Positions 5,252 to 15,653 of a stretch of DNA of 64,000 nucleotides are shown here, one piece after another (the stretch's first letter is position 1; the number at the start of each line of letters is the position of its first letter). The translations under genes were made by a program, and so were the position numbers. The DNA is from Desulfobacterales bacterium. Lineage in GTDB: Bacteria > Desulfobacterota > Desulfobacteria > Desulfobacterales > SURF-7. The stretch is taken from assembly GCA_046484745.1 (NCBI GenBank), contig JAWOIJ010000046.1, positions 74,743 through 138,742 on the forward strand, given 5' to 3'. The notes below the pieces were generated by a model that saw only the letters and a program-made list of their open reading frames with translations, had not been told where the DNA came from and did not search any database.

Positions 5252-5286
5252 GACAATTTTTGTCAGCACCCGGACAATAAGTGACA
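5252..5286 (+). promoter_or_regulatory. Candidate upstream activator sites for the sigma-54 activator: GACAA-TTT-TTGTC palindrome plus a GACAA/TGACA pair
   Basis: GACAATTTTTGTC is a perfect 5+3+5 palindrome at 5252-5264, and GACAATAAGTGACA lies at 5273-5286. They sit about 110-140 nt upstream of the -24 element, a typical enhancer distance. TGTC-type repeats are reported PilR sites in Pseudomonas. Confidence 0.4.
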
Positions 5287-5392
5287 TTTTTCGGCAGCAT
5301 AAAAAAGCAGCAGGGTGCAAAAAGTTTGGGATTTGAAAATATGCCTATGTAAAAACAAATGGATAGCAATATAATTCTTTGAGGGAATGGGT

Positions 5393-5408
5393 TGGCATTT
5401 TATTTGCT
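5393..5408 (+). promoter_or_regulatory. Sigma-54 (-24/-12) promoter for the pilin gene
   Basis: TGGCATTTTATTTGCT has GG at 5394-5395 and GC at 5406-5407 separated by exactly 10 nt. This matches TGGCAC-N5-TTGCW at all invariant positions. Confidence 0.7.
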
Positions 5409-5555
5409 TGAGCTTTAGGGCGTTGCTTAAGTTTGGAGATTGTTGCTCTGAAAACACAATTGGCAACAGGTTGAAAAGGAGGTAATAAACCAACACGTAA
5501 CCGATTACAGTCTAAATTAATGATGAAAAACCAACAACAAACAAGGAGAATGATT

Positions 5556-5972
5556 ATGTTACAAAAAATGAGAGGAAACACCGAAGGTTTTACACTGATT
5601 GAGCTGATGATCGTTATCGCAATTATCGGCATCCTGGCAGCCATTGCTATTCCTAACTTTATTTCCTATCGTAACAAGGCGTTCTGTAGTGGCGTTGAAT
5701 CAGATGCAAACGGCATTGCAGCGGTTATTGCGGATTATTTTTCCGACCCGATGCATACAACCCTGCCGACCGTTTCTGGAGAAATTTCTTATAATCCTAC
5801 CGGTGACAGCCCGTTTAACACCACGAATGAAAATCAGTTCACTGTAGCCGGTAACACGGATAATATCACCATTACTGTTGACGATAACAGCAACCGCTGC
5901 CCAAGGGGAGCTGTTTTTGTATTGTCAATGCCTTCAAGCAGCGCCGGCGACGGTTGGGGTGATGGTCTATAA
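5556..5972 (+). CDS. pilA: Type IVa pilin (prepilin with a short leader)
   Basis: Class III signal ...GNTEG|[24 protein letters not shown] with Gly-1, Phe+1 and Glu+5. AAGGAGA at 5543-5549 sits 6 nt before ATG 5556; ATG 5568 would give a 7-aa leader, and the listed ORF start at 5520 is less likely. The head domain has two Cys (FCSG ... NRCPRG). Confidence 0.92.
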   Translation: [138 protein letters not shown]

Positions 5973-12808: not shown

Positions 12809-12995
12809 AAGGTATCTTTTCCGATCGTCACAGGATTCTACCCTGGTTTTTTTAAGATCGCTTCCGGTAAGCACAGGCTAATCAGGCGAGACACTTTCGA
12901 TAACCGGATGAGTACCGATATCTTTTTAAAACGTTCTGGTTTGTTGAATTATTCCGGCAGATGGTGTAGGTATCAGCAAATATTTATCATAGAGA

Positions 12996-14723
12996 GTGCA
13001 GCAGGATATGAAATTTTCCCGAAAGAACCTTTTGTTTGCGGCAATTGCCGCGGTTTCCTTTTCCGCAGGTTTCTTCCTCCCCTTCGAGACGTTGAAAGTT
13101 GTTTACAGCTCCTATGCCTACTATTTTCTGTTTTTATCTTTCCTGTTGTGGGTCGCTTTGATCGCCAGGGTTTACATAAAAAATCTTCGCGTCATCGCAG
13201 GGCGCCATTATGTTGGTATTATAATGTCCGTTGTCATTGTTACAGCGATTTTTTTCATGTCCCCGCCGCGGTTTAAGGTTTTGAATGATGAGGCCGAGCT
13301 GGTCGGAATCTCGATGATGATGCATGAGAGTAAGATTTCATCTGCTCCCATACAGGGGTATTACTACGGTGATTCCGCCAATTTAAGACGAGAACTGAAT
13401 GTAAACAAAAGGCCGCTGCTGTTTCCGTTTTTGACTTCACTTGTCCATTCTGTTTTTGGATATAGCGCATATCATGGTTTTGTCGTTAATTACCTGTGCG
13501 GAATTCTGATCCTTCTTTTTGTATACGGTTTTATCTCGAAAACGTTTTCCCGAAGTTATGCTGCCATCGCTGTTTTGATTTTTTCCGGATGCCCGATTTT
13601 TGTTCTCTGGATCACGTCAAGCGGTTTTGAGACCGTCAATCTGCTCTTTATCATCCTTGTATTCCTGTTTTTCTACCAGTTTTTACAGGATAAAAACAGT
13701 GATCATGCCGAGCTGCTGATTCTGACATTGATTCTGCTTGCGCAATGCCGGTATGAATCACTTCTTTTTATGGTTGCGATTCTGTTTCTGCTCCCCCATC
13801 TGGTCGATCGGAAGCACGTTCTTCAATATAGCTATATCATGTATATTGTGCCGGTATTGCTTATCCCAACGCTGTGGCAGCGAAGATTATTCGATGCTGT
13901 TGCACCGTTAATCGTCGAAAAGGGCCCCAGTCAGTTTGAAATACCCGCGCAGGTATTTTCGACCGGCAATTTCCTGAGCAATATCCCACAAAATATTTTT
14001 GTTTTGACCGGACTGGATTCGAATTTCGGGTTTACCCCTGTGTTGTTTATTCTTTCCCTTGCAGGGATATACCTGCTGGCAAAGAAAAAACTGACAGACC
14101 CGCCCGAAATGTCTTCAACCTTCAATGGCATCCTTCTGTTCGGGATACTTACTTTTGTCCTGATGATCGGTATCATCTCTTCCTATTACTGGGGGAATTT
14201 TCAATACCATTTATCAAACCGGTTCGCGATCGTTTTTCTTCCCTATATGGTATTCTCCGCAATTTTCTGTCTTGATTCCATTGAGCGGAAAACCAGAAAG
14301 CCATGGAAGCTTTTCCTGATCACTTTTTTTATGCTTCACCTTTTGTTCTATTGGCCTTACGGCGCGCATCAGAAGAACCTGAAAACGCTTCCCCTTCCGA
14401 AAGAGTATCAAAAAGTGTTGAATTATCTGGAAACGGAATACAAAGATCCACGAAATACATTGATCATCTCTGAACGGCCCAATCTGTATGTGATCCATCA
14501 ATATGGTGCGGTTTCATTTGAGTACGCCAACAGCCATGCAAGGGAAATTATGATTGCCATGAGCCGTTACTATGATCATATTGTTGTTCTCCAGAACTGC
14601 AGTCAGAAAGAGGGCATTGTAATGGATGGCAGCCGCCTTCACGGTAGATTCAGAATTCAGGAGAAACAGAAATTAAACATTTCCATGTCATCCTATGTGA
14701 GAATATCGGAGGTAATGAAATAG
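12996..14723 (+). CDS. GT-C-type (ArnT/PMT_2-like) membrane glycosyltransferase
   Basis: Loop-1 motif LNDEAELVGISMMMHE followed by NKRPLLFPFLTSLVHSVFGYS (resembling the KPPL...fG pattern of ArnT-like enzymes), many TM helices and a C-terminal soluble domain. The start is uncertain (GTG 12996 or ATG 13008). Confidence 0.6.
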   Translation: MQQDMKFSRKNLLFAAIAAVSFSAGFFLPFETLKVVYSSYAYYFLFLSFLLWVALIARVYIKNLRVIAGRHYVGIIMSVVIVTAIFFMSPPRFKVLNDEAELVGISMMMHESKISSAPIQGYYYGDSANLRRELNVNKRPLLFPFLTSLVHSVFGYSAYHGFVVNYLCGILILLFVYGFISKTFSRSYAAIAVLIFSGCPIFVLWITSSGFETVNLLFIILVFLFFYQFLQDKNSDHAELLILTLILLAQCRYESLLFMVAILFLLPHLVDRKHVLQYSYIMYIVPVLLIPTLWQRRLFDAVAPLIVEKGPSQFEIPAQVFSTGNFLSNIPQNIFVLTGLDSNFGFTPVLFILSLAGIYLLAKKKLTDPPEMSSTFNGILLFGILTFVLMIGIISSYYWGNFQYHLSNRFAIVFLPYMVFSAIFCLDSIERKTRKPWKLFLITFFMLHLLFYWPYGAHQKNLKTLPLPKEYQKVLNYLETEYKDPRNTLIISERPNLYVIHQYGAVSFEYANSHAREIMIAMSRYYDHIVVLQNCSQKEGIVMDGSRLHGRFRIQEKQKLNISMSSYVRISEVMK

Positions 14724-14741
14724 AAGCCGCCTGGTTGTATT

Positions 14742-15653
14742 ATGAGCCCATTTTTTTCTAAAACCCGTTCCAGGTCTTTCCGGTTGTATGAAGGCAGAAT
14801 CGCGTCCCCGCTTTCACCCCGATACGATTCGGTTCAGGTTGTCTGGATGGGAACAGCGGGATTATATGTTCATGATGGCGAAACCCGCATTTTTATCGAC
14901 CCGTTTGTGAGCCGGCATGGTTTTCTGAAGGTTGCCCTGGGCTTTTCCTTAAAACCGAATCCGGAAACCATTGGAGAATGGATTGTCAAGACAAGCGGAG
15001 GACAGGCGGACGCTGTTGTTGTCAGCCACTCGCATTATGATCATTCGATGGATGCACCTTTTTTTGCGAGCCGGACAGGTGCGATTCTGGCAGGTGGAGA
15101 GAGTACCGCCTTTATCGGGCGCGGTGCCGGACTTCCGGATGAGCAAATCCGAGTTGTTCGGGCAGGGGATCAGTTGAGAGTTGGAAAGTTCGGGATTACG
15201 TTTCTGGAAAGTCTCCACAGCCCGGTACTTTTCGGCAGCGTTCCATGGCCGGGAAAAATTATCTCACCACTCAAACCGCCTGTTGCGGCTTCCAAATATC
15301 GTCTTGGAGAAATATTTTCGATTCTTGTAGAGCATCCCAGGGGGAATTTCGTGCATCAGGGAAGCGCCGGATTTTTGCCCGGCATGTTCAATGGCATGGC
15401 AGTGGATGTTATTTTTCTCAGTATCGCGGGCCGGGCGGATACAGGGGAGCTTTTAATGAATTCAGCCATTCCCCTGCAGGTGAAAAGAATAATCCCCATA
15501 CACTTTGATGATTTTTTCTTACCCCTGAAAGAAGGGATCTCCTTTGTAAGCAGGTTGAATTTCCAGGAGTTTTGCGAAACCGCATTTGATTGCAGTCCGC
15601 CGATTCCTGTTCAAACCCTGCCGATCGGCCGGCCGGCAGTCCTGTTTTTGTAA
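14742..15653 (+). CDS. MBL-fold metallo-hydrolase
   Basis: HxHxDH motif in VVVSHSHYDHSMD and a beta-lactamase-fold layout. It begins 18 nt after the preceding GT-C gene. Confidence 0.75.
   Translation: MSPFFSKTRSRSFRLYEGRIASPLSPRYDSVQVVWMGTAGLYVHDGETRIFIDPFVSRHGFLKVALGFSLKPNPETIGEWIVKTSGGQADAVVVSHSHYDHSMDAPFFASRTGAILAGGESTAFIGRGAGLPDEQIRVVRAGDQLRVGKFGITFLESLHSPVLFGSVPWPGKIISPLKPPVAASKYRLGEIFSILVEHPRGNFVHQGSAGFLPGMFNGMAVDVIFLSIAGRADTGELLMNSAIPLQVKRIIPIHFDDFFLPLKEGISFVSRLNFQEFCETAFDCSPPIPVQTLPIGRPAVLFL

Follow-up and report, generated by a model that had tools for sequence, protein, structure and literature searches.

A type IVa pilin locus of a Desulfobacterales bacterium with a candidate periplasmic module for pilin disulfide formation and O-glycosylation

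Gene content and transcription signals of the locus

The DNA analysed here is a 64-kb stretch of contig JAWOIJ010000046.1 from an uncultured Desulfobacterales bacterium. It is referred to as the window, and all coordinates below are window positions. The window contains a type IVa prepilin gene, pilA, followed on the same strand by six other open reading frames (ORFs). These encode a 696-aa membrane protein with tetratricopeptide repeats (TPRs), a VKOR-DsbA fusion, three PMT/PMT_2-family glycosyltransferases of GT-C type with 551, 571 and 575 aa, and an MBL-fold hydrolase (Table 1). The original prediction for this DNA had proposed all seven genes as a candidate periplasmic pilin-modification system. 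The ORFs, their order and the peptide motifs it listed were all found in the sequence, with gaps of 136, 1, 19, 50, 187 and 18 nt from the pilin onward. Profile searches matched N_methyl, VKOR, DSBA/Thioredoxin_4, PMT/PMT_2 and Lactamase_B_2/_3 on the expected proteins. Comparison with related genomes reduced the proposed system to a core of pilA, the 696-aa protein, VKOR-DsbA and the 551-aa protein, which is held together by linkage; the seven genes do not form one system.

The pilin possesses the complete type IVa signature, composed of a class III signal peptide, the motif G/F(T/S)LIE (the slash marks cleavage), Glu5 and a hydrophobic alpha1-N helix. It scored 35.7 bits with Pfam N_methyl (cut-off 21.2) and 32.5 bits with NCBIfam TIGR02532 (cut-off 16.3). 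As a ribosome-binding site, GGAG, is situated at 5545-5548, the true start of pilA is probably the ATG at 5556, which would give a 10-residue leader before G/FTLIE. Cleavage at G/FTLIELM leaves a mature protein of 128 aa with a single Cys pair (AFCSG ... NRCPRG) and a head rich in Ser, Thr and Asn. Orthologous pilins hold the same position in the relatives.

The gene upstream of pilA encodes a PilR-like protein with a receiver domain, an AAA+ sigma-54 activator domain and a Fis-type helix-turn-helix. pilR is a conserved upstream neighbour of the pilin gene, and an orthologue (E <1e-100) was found in 27 of the 60 related loci that have at least 4 kb of flank on one side. The motif TGGCATTTTATTTGC upstream of pilA would, as read from the sequence, act as a sigma-54 promoter, and a strict sigma-54 motif precedes 56 of 90 non-redundant cluster pilins. 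The GC-rich hairpin after pilA is flanked by an A-rich and then a T-rich stretch. It had been listed earlier as a caveat. This objection falls, because a hairpin of -15 kcal/mol or lower is kept just 3' of the pilin in 82 of the 90 non-redundant cluster pilins, and pilin accessory operons in which a terminator behind the major pilin gene lowers accessory-gene expression are on record (PMC11841053). The hairpin is thus regarded as part of the design, likely an attenuator which sets a low expression of the accessory genes.

Table 1. Features of the pilin locus in window coordinates.
Feature	Position	Strand	Basis
PilR-like sigma-54-dependent response regulator	3811..5238	+	Pfam Response_reg, Sigma54_activat, HTH_8
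Sigma-54 -24/-12 promoter-like motif TGGCATTTTATTTGC	5393..5407	+	upstream of pilA, read from sequence
Type IVa prepilin pilA	5520..5972	+	Pfam N_methyl, NCBIfam IV_pilin_GFxxxE, above cut-off
Intrinsic-terminator-like hairpin after pilA	6066..6088		10 bp, 6 GC pairs
696-aa TMTC/TfpW-like membrane and TPR protein	6109..8199	+	motifs, AF2 models, Foldseek
388-aa VKOR-DsbA fusion	8201..9367	+	Pfam VKOR, DSBA, Thioredoxin_4
551-aa PMT/PMT_2-family GT-C, TTG start	9387..11042	+	Pfam PMT, PMT_2
571-aa PMT_2-family GT-C with short C-terminal TPR-like segment	11093..12808	+	Pfam PMT_2
575-aa PMT_2 (GT39/ArnT-like) GT-C, GTG start	12996..14723	+	Pfam PMT_2
303-aa MBL-fold hydrolase, SHSHYDHS motif	14742..15653	+	Pfam Lactamase_B_2/_3

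Conservation of the cluster in Desulfobacterota and beyond

A scan with the family alignment, taking one genome per species, found more than 592 relatives, and the loci of the best 80 were analysed. Almost all of these 80 are titled Desulfobacterota, with a few metagenome-assembled genome (MAG) bins under other labels. They represent Desulfobacterales, Desulfobulbales (including Ca. Electrothrix and Electronema), Syntrophales and Desulfatiglandales. The closest relative of the window locus is a 96-98%-identical Desulfobacterales MAG (P0001, L085; L-numbers are labels of the compared related loci). Linkage in Desulfobacterota was counted in 52 loci which are anchored on the 696-aa family and extend 1 kb or more to either side. 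A pilin lies within 1 kb in 44 of them, overlaps the GT-C ORF in two more and is situated a few kb off inside the cluster in another four. In total 50 of the 52 loci (about 96%) have a pilin in the cluster, and none was seen only in L064 and L071. In Syntrophales and Desulfatiglandales the pilin gene is convergent rather than upstream, still adjacent.

The order pilR, pilin, TPR/GT-C, variable genes, VKOR-DsbA and PMT GT-C is the same in L001, at 74% identity, as in L002-L005, at about 46%. Cultured carriers of the cluster include Desulfofustis glycolicus DSM 9705 (L042, with pilA, TPR/GT-C, VKOR-DsbA and PMT), Desulfosarcina alkanivorans PL12 (L126) and Desulfosudis/Desulfococcus oleovorans. 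A reverse scan was anchored on VKOR-DsbA. Directly downstream of it, an orthologue of the 551-aa gene follows in 53 of the 59 loci that extend far enough on this side. Where enough upstream sequence was available, a pilin was found upstream in 45 of 54 loci and a TPR/GT-C in 38 of 54. As the arrangement is seen again in dozens of genomes with orthologues of only 35-50% identity, it is far beyond chance. The conserved core consists of pilR, the sigma-54 promoter, pilA, the hairpin, the 696-aa protein, VKOR-DsbA and the 551-aa GT-C. Pilin linkage across Desulfobacterota is strong for the last three proteins, sporadic for the 571- and 575-aa proteins and limited to close relatives for the MBL protein. 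The 551-aa GT-C is a core member, and its orthologue is also present in clusters with a pilin and a TPR/GT-C in which VKOR-DsbA is missing (L033, L040, L045, L049, L053).

The 571- and 575-aa GT-Cs are variable accessories. L085 and L001 alone have orthologues of the 571-aa protein, and weaker, distant TPR-rich homologues are present in L116 and L119. With 84 proteins the 575-aa family is small. Orthologues of the 575-aa protein occur in the pilin clusters of L002/L003, L159 and L163, in the last of these between pilR and the pilin gene. Two copies in L147 adjoin VKOR-DsbA and the 551-aa orthologue, with no pilin detected there, and a 31%-identical homologue is not pilin-linked. Only the same-species MAG L085 has the 571-aa, 575-aa and MBL genes together. 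A fixed battery of four GT-C enzymes, as originally envisaged, was rejected on this sporadic distribution. The four GT-Cs were also considered as recent paralogues. BLASTP found no mutual similarity among them, so they represent distinct lineages and not recent duplicates.

The MBL hydrolase is probably only an adjacent neighbour and not part of the system. Its gene adjoins the 575-aa gene only in relatives of at least 78% identity (shared contigs), and of 164 loci the same-species L085 alone contains it. At 54-56% identity the linkage is lost, and the orthologues (L165, L166) are in unrelated contexts, one of them in a Desulfosudis MAG which has its pilin cluster on another contig. Its proposed membership was therefore rejected.

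GT2 and methyltransferase genes are often present in the clusters of relatives. GT2-like genes are candidate donor synthases; 87 of 164 related loci have them, in part as fusions with methyltransferase domains. A fusion of an S-adenosylmethionine-dependent methyltransferase with GT2 (about 490-520 aa) recurs in pilin clusters (L002 13909-15405, L004 17884-19452, L163 16642-18117), often beside a second methyltransferase; this window does not have it. Such a fusion points to methylated sugars on a lipid carrier. Two to four tandem TPR/GT-C paralogues were found in 18 of 78 loci. Some of these tandem genes stand beside two or three pilin paralogues (L084 4246-12617 and 12689-14037, L069, L032, L048), and a Smithella MAG has four GT-Cs and three pilins, hinting at a pairing of one enzyme per pilin or at diversification of the glycan. 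In several MAGs the 551-aa orthologue or the TPR/GT-C is split into short ORFs (L005 13499-15267, L043 13059-14948, L150 3366-5372 and 9140-10896, L101 9140-10793), which may be pseudogenes or frameshift or assembly errors.

Homologues of the 696-aa protein were also found outside the phylum. A scan with the N-terminus of PilE-type pilins gave 80 beta- and gammaproteobacterial pilin loci (L167-L246). In 14 of them a TPR-bearing ORF begins right after the pilin, with 580-700 aa in the complete ones (for example L170 6438-8405, L200 6477-8408, L191 6365-8413, L242 987-2969). These ORFs match the hidden Markov model (HMM) of the Desulfobacterota N-domain at E = 4e-78 to 4e-8 and share the same kinds of motif, FxFDD as well as SYFRP, SKE(T/H) and ERFLYLP, the latter three in L209 and L219. 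A second scan with the proteobacterial homologues gave at least 594 relatives (loci L247-L326) from Acinetobacter, Moraxella, Marinobacter, Rhodanobacter, Lysobacter, Woeseiaceae and others. A pilin is directly upstream in 33 of the 67 loci with enough upstream sequence, and within 3 kb in 50 of the 67. The gamma- and betaproteobacterial homologues in these 33 loci match the Desulfobacterota HMM at 1e-49 to 1e-78. Alcanivorax, Marinicella and Ramlibacter also encode a homologue of the 696-aa protein directly 3' of a PilE-like pilin. None of the 80 PilE-scan loci has a homologue of VKOR-DsbA or of the 551-aa protein. The pair of pilA and TMTC-like GT-C is therefore a widespread accessory arrangement, while VKOR-DsbA with extra PMT-family GT-Cs is a Desulfobacterota-specific extension.

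Disulfide oxidase and glycosyltransferases of the cluster

The VKOR-DsbA fusion matched Pfam VKOR at 90.4 bits and DSBA at 55.2 bits, and Thioredoxin_4 was also matched. It is composed of a quinone-reducing VKOR domain with five transmembrane (TM) helices followed by a periplasmic DsbA-like domain. In 19 orthologues six cysteines never vary, namely C51 and C59 in a loop of the VKOR domain and those of CIMC133-136 and CFQC242-245. In PDB the family profile finds solved VKORs as well as DsbA-like proteins. Fusions of VKOR with thioredoxin such as the Synechococcus VKOR (3kp9/4nv6) have the same loop Cys pair, CXXC, extra TM helix and periplasmic thioredoxin-fold CXXC. The present protein differs from them in its DsbA-like partner (best PDB matches 3gyk, ScsC and BdbD) and in the position of its gene between GT-C genes at a pilin locus.

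This protein is a candidate oxidase for the pilin disulfide. The pilins next to VKOR-DsbA form a recognisable subfamily (PNFI.YRNK.FCS...GRCP). At least two Cys are present in 85 of the 87 pilins adjoining VKOR-DsbA, and 21 of 36 pilins from loci without it have no Cys at all. Co-occurrence was counted in a flank-controlled set, namely loci anchored on TPR/GT-C in which each flank reaches 5 kb or more. Among loci whose pilin has at least two Cys, 16 have VKOR-DsbA in the cluster and 3 do not; among those whose pilin has fewer than two Cys the numbers are 0 and 12 (Fisher's exact p = 3e-6, uncorrected for phylogeny). A role of the oxidase in serving the pilin is best supported by this co-occurrence, with which a wider housekeeping role is compatible.

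The enzyme may instead be a general periplasmic disulfide oxidase, a replacement of DsbB/DsbA which happens to be encoded beside its most abundant client and is not dedicated to the pilin. This is a serious contender, rated at less than even odds. It is established that VKOR homologues with a fused thioredoxin-like domain generate disulfides, and the family profile matches 3kp9 and 4nv6 ('VKORC1/thioredoxin domain protein'). VKOR-thioredoxin fusions replace DsbB. Among the best 80 loci VKOR-DsbA occurs once per genome for most, with two or three loci from a few isolates, and some copies are away from a pilin. Against this reading, none of the 12 flank-controlled loci with fewer than two Cys in the pilin has VKOR-DsbA in its cluster. 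VKOR-DsbA is also tied more tightly to the 551-aa GT-C (53 of 59) than to the pilin, which a pure housekeeping role leaves unexplained. Both explanations are also compatible with each other, as the enzyme could be general and serve the pilin as well.

The 696-aa protein, encoded directly after the pilin gene, is a candidate pilin O-glycosyltransferase. Its only Pfam matches are TPRs. The membrane domain (residues 1-410) matched no Pfam family even at E up to 10 and nothing in PDB by sequence or profile, so its assignment to GT-C needed evidence from structure and motifs. Alignment of its N-domain by hhalign with the PMT_2 proteins of the window and their family profiles was not significant. 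Two proteobacterial members of the family reach PMT_2 at 23.8 and 18.1 bits, below the cut-off of 26.1. A full-length AlphaFold2 (AF2) model built from an alignment (pLDDT 85.7) has 11 TM helices. Loop 1 contains short juxtamembrane helices, and the TPRs form a superhelix spanning about 420-696. In 60 aligned homologues W34, D37, D38, R68, N78, K198, E360, H361, R362, Y364 and P366 are invariant; P69 is also listed among the family invariants, and E199 is nearly invariant. The motifs DD37-38, YRP67-69, SKEN197-200, HD297-298 and EHRNY360-364 are all on predicted periplasmic loops. This placement, and that of the TPR domain in the periplasm, is predicted by helix count and the positive-inside rule.

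The invariant residues pair one to one with the motifs of human TMTC1-4, defined as DD in EL1, SHKSYRP...L(T/S)F.LN in EL1, KE(T/Q) in EL3 and ERxxY in EL5 (PMC7801869). In the 696-aa family DD of EL1 corresponds to WHLDDY (TMTC M1), SHKSYRP...LT.F.LN of EL1 to YRPVxxLTFALNW (M2), KE(T/Q) of EL3 to SKEN (M4) and ERxxY of EL5 to EHRNYLP (M7). The eukaryotic TMTC1-4 O-mannosyltransferases have the same motif set and the same architecture of 11 TM helices with lumenal or periplasmic TPRs. They differ in the DUF1736 domain of the TM7-TM8 loop, for which the 696-aa protein gave no Pfam match at E up to 10. In a bacterial protein the donor would be linked to undecaprenyl- rather than dolichyl-phosphate, and the presumed substrate is pilin and not cadherins.

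Structural comparison by Foldseek gave TPR proteins only when the full-length model was used. The N-domain was therefore modelled separately (pLDDT 70.7, pTM 0.76). With this model of limited confidence, the matches of probability 0.89 or higher were exclusively GT-Cs, at weak E-values of about 0.02-0.6: STT3 (6ftg, 6c26, 8pn9; TM-score 0.46-0.49), Pmt4 (9i5k; 0.46 for the full length) and ArnT (5ezm, 5f15; 0.32-0.33). The remaining matches, such as MFS transporters and G-protein-coupled receptors, had TM-scores of 0.11-0.17. N-glycosylation was considered because STT3 was the top structural match and the pilin contains NTT and NIT sequons. It was rejected since neither sequon has an acidic residue at -2 and the motifs are TMTC/PMT-like. 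Bacterial PglB requires an acidic residue at -2 of the sequon. Taken together, motifs and structural matches indicate, with moderate to good confidence, that the 696-aa protein is a TMTC-like GT-C with a TPR domain.

The closest described pilin enzyme is TfpW (AAM52060.1) of Pseudomonas aeruginosa Pa5196/PA7, a GT-C which acts as D-arabinofuranosyltransferase on group IV pilin and is required for D-arabinofuranosylation at several Ser/Thr (bioRxiv 10.1101/2020.04.19.049825). Its 646 aa comprise 11 TM helices behind a cytoplasmic N-terminus, with DDX in loop 1 and, at the C-terminal end, a TPR domain in the periplasm; it was modelled on ArnT as best template, and its gene directly follows pilA (same source). 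Compared with this published description, the 696-aa protein shares the size class, the 11 TM helices, the loop-1 DD, the periplasmic TPR and the position after pilA. The TfpW motif YX6PFX7P of periplasmic loop 4 is matched in it only as YX6P (Y281-LSQLFY-P288), with neither PF nor a further Pro at the spacing required. None of 15 proteobacterial ORFs inspected for the motif, including 13 N-domain-HMM homologues, has it. Neither the PilE-type pilin scan nor the scan with gammaproteobacterial homologues returned a locus from the TfpW-bearing species named in bioRxiv 10.1101/2020.04.19.049825. The window also differs in having neither D-arabinofuranose donor genes of DprE1/DprE2 type nor TfpX. 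TfpW acts alone, whereas up to three more GT-Cs and VKOR-DsbA are present here.

The three other GT-Cs were all recognised by Pfam. The 551-aa protein scored 40.9 bits with PMT (cut-off 22.7) and 37.3 bits with PMT_2 (cut-off 26.1), both above the gathering threshold. PMT_2 was also above cut-off for the 571-aa (41.0 bits) and 575-aa (46.7 bits) proteins. Three of the four proteins are thus GT-Cs by curated thresholds, and the 696-aa protein, whose membrane domain is missed by Pfam, is GT-C-like by fold, topology and TMTC motifs. A conserved acidic residue in loop 1 was found in all four, as had been proposed: D37 and D38 in the 696-aa protein (n=60), D39 in the 551-aa protein (n=16), D41 in the 571-aa protein (only four sequences), and D98 and E99 in the 575-aa protein (n=28). 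Loop 1 of the 551-aa protein reads VPPVSRDALTHH, and H43 and H44 are invariant along with D39. The corresponding acidic pairs are D77/E78 in Pmt1 and D55/E56 in ArnT (cited in PMC7801869). TPRs had been expected in two of the four. They are strong in the 696-aa protein; residues 501-554 of the 571-aa protein fall below the Pfam thresholds, though they match the TPRs of SPINDLY (1e-5) and a designed consensus TPR protein. The 551-, 571- and 575-aa proteins have no sequence-detectable relative among solved structures. They resemble PMT/ArnT enzymes (GT39/GT83) in being polytopic, above threshold and equipped with the loop-1 Asp or Asp-Glu, and by this analogy would use a polyprenyl-phosphate sugar donor on the periplasmic side. 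The difference is that their genes sit at a pilin locus.

TfpO/PilO and PglL, which also modify pilins, are members of the O-antigen-ligase (Wzy_C) family and transfer preassembled oligosaccharides from undecaprenyl diphosphate. A Pfam search found the Wzy_C domain in none of the cluster proteins. The TfpO gene, too, is situated directly after pilA (bioRxiv 10.1101/2020.04.19.049825).

The GT-Cs could be directed at targets other than pilin, such as other periplasmic or outer-membrane proteins, lipid A/LPS as in the case of ArnT, or an exopolysaccharide, and their proximity to pilA would then come from shared PilR/sigma-54-linked regulation of surface functions or from inherited gene order. 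PMT_2 is the ArnT/PMT family, and the relatives are titled 'ArnT family' or 'GT39' by the sources. In addition, some VKOR-DsbA and 551-aa pairs are away from any pilin, the 31%-identical 575-aa homologue is unlinked to pilins, the flanking housekeeping genes also keep their order, and the N-domain family is so large that not all its members can be pilin-specific. This alternative is nevertheless unlikely in view of the pilin adjacency of the 696-aa family, which holds in about 96% of the anchored Desulfobacterota loci. Adjacency is retained where the orientation shifts to convergent, and it reappears independently in Gamma- and Betaproteobacteria amid different neighbours. TfpW, with like architecture and position, is required for pilin glycosylation. 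A non-catalytic role of the 696-aa protein in pilus assembly or stability (a TPR scaffold like PilF/PilW/Tgl or a chaperone like TfpY), to which the database titles, sub-threshold NCBIfam matches to PilW/Tgl-type TPRs and the lack of a significant sequence match to a GT-C family could point, is very improbable, as the charged residues DD, R68, K198, E360, H361 and R362 together with Y364 are strictly invariant in 60 sequences, predicted to be periplasmic and coincident with the catalytic/ligand motifs of TMTC, the sole high-probability structural matches are GT-C enzymes, and two proteobacterial members touch PMT_2 just under threshold.

The family is poorly annotated. At 90% clustering it comprises more than 3,783 proteins, all titled 'tetratricopeptide repeat protein', and the sources know it under this name, 'PilF' or 'TadD' only. 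A profile of the N-domain (window 6109-7362 with homologues) found 63,253 cluster representatives at E <=1e-3, of which 11,696 remain when E is limited to <=1e-30. That the membrane region of such a family is covered by no Pfam or NCBIfam model represents a large annotation gap.

Proposed pathway and its significance

The locus is best explained as a major type IVa pilin locus with a periplasmic pilin-maturation module, in which TfpW-like O-glycosylation is combined with extra GT-Cs and a disulfide oxidase. The membrane-anchored pilin would undergo oxidative folding and O-glycosylation in the periplasm before assembly. A probability of about 60% is given to this explanation. PilR and sigma-54 would drive strong transcription of pilA, and the terminator hairpin would pass a fraction of the transcripts to the accessory genes, unless these have a weak promoter of their own. 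The prepilin would insert in the inner membrane with its head in the periplasm. VKOR-DsbA would then oxidise the single Cys pair of the head and deliver the electrons to quinone. The TPR domain of the 696-aa protein would hold the pilin while a sugar is moved from a polyprenyl-phosphate-sugar donor to Ser/Thr of the head. Further sugars may be added, or the glycan extended, by the 551-aa GT-C and here also by the 571- and 575-aa GT-Cs, and gain or loss of accessory GT-Cs would diversify the pilus surface. The MBL hydrolase, as an unrelated neighbour, would have no step. The pilin as substrate, the nature of sugar and donor, the order of action and the read-through transcription are all predictions of this scheme.

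Several points weigh against the proposed maturation module. The roles of the cluster in Desulfobacterota are predictions read from sequence. The window contains no GT2 or other donor synthase and no flippase, and no pilus assembly gene is present among its ORFs of at least 200 aa (translations judged by eye); the caveat of the original prediction, that polyprenyl-phosphate-sugar synthase and pilus assembly genes are missing from the window, held on inspection of the ORFs. In some genomes the VKOR-DsbA/PMT pair (about 7 loci) has no pilin nearby, so VKOR-DsbA and the 551-aa protein may act on further substrates as well. Upstream, the housekeeping genes larC, pgpA, lepB and pyrB/C are also syntenic in the relatives, and part of the conservation may therefore be inherited gene order. 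To these are added the disregard of phylogeny in the Cys/VKOR statistic, the missing Pfam, PDB and hhalign support for the membrane domain of the 696-aa protein together with its weak Foldseek E-values, and the comparison with TfpW by description, with the incomplete YX6P motif.

Base composition of the locus was analysed with regard to horizontal transfer, a thought prompted by the lower GC of 0.41-0.43 at 8-12 kb. Relative to the flanks, the membrane-protein genes (6001-14000) have a lower GC (0.41-0.46), a GC skew close to zero and a negative AT skew. With the flanking synteny conserved, the low GC and the T-rich strand bias fit membrane-protein composition, with T-rich codons for hydrophobic residues, better than a foreign origin. 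Just 3' of the cluster, on the opposite strand, a 197-aa ORF (15936-16529, -) gave no Pfam/NCBIfam match at E <=0.01. A cobalamin riboswitch (Rfam RF00174, 120 bits) is situated at 21907-22098 (+), directly 5' of a TonB-dependent-receptor-like ORF, and the ORFs downstream of it (22160-29180) resemble a TonB-dependent receptor, BtuF/BtuC/BtuD and ExbB/TonB by translation only. The ORFs at 38837-40210 (+), 44425-45804 (-) and 47771-50623 (+) resemble DnaB, DnaA and UvrA, judged by their translations alone, and the window may on this account be near a replication origin. Cumulative GC skew climbs monotonically across the window with no switch, despite the DnaA- and DnaB-like ORFs.

The cluster has been drawn before in cable bacteria. 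Geelhoed et al. 2023 (PMC10580974) depicted a pilA cluster with TPR proteins, a 'phospholipid carrier-dependent glycosyltransferase', a methyltransferase and a predicted glycosyltransferase. It was present in nearly all Electrothrix clades, and its TPR proteins were treated as protein-protein interaction modules (PMC10580974). It appears to be of the same type as the cluster described here, and Electrothrix and Electronema loci were recovered in the present scan (L046, L059). That paper makes no proposal on pilin glycosylation or disulfides. The novelty claimed for the locus at first is thereby narrowed, as TfpW shares architecture and position and the cable-bacteria cluster is already on record. 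No account joining VKOR-DsbA, multiple GT-Cs and a pilin was found in the searched literature. TfpW-like pilin glycosylation is of a known kind, and its phylum-wide tie to a disulfide oxidase and further GT-Cs is previously undescribed in the searched literature.

A wider proposal is offered as tentative, with the odds against it: Desulfobacterota, including cable bacteria and the lineages debated for conductive pili, may possess a dedicated periplasmic pilin-maturation island in which a quinone-linked oxidase is coupled to GT-Cs led by a bacterial TMTC homologue with a single protein substrate. If so, the island would be a prokaryotic counterpart, possibly a relative, of oxidative folding and TMTC/PMT O-mannosylation in the endoplasmic reticulum, and the pilins of Desulfobacterota would be heavily and variably glycosylated. 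The 696-aa family, with its tens of thousands of members, would then represent a major overlooked class of pilin glycosyltransferases across phyla. It would also provide a bacterial, genetically tractable model of the TMTC type with a TPR domain and one obvious substrate. The tight pairing (53 of 59 loci) of VKOR-DsbA and a PMT-like GT-C calls for an explanation of its own. Type IV pili of Desulfobacterota are central to the debates on extracellular electron transfer and on cable bacteria. If their pilins are both glycosylated and disulfide-locked, then structural models, claims on conductivity, heterologous expression and interactions with phages and predators must account for both modifications.

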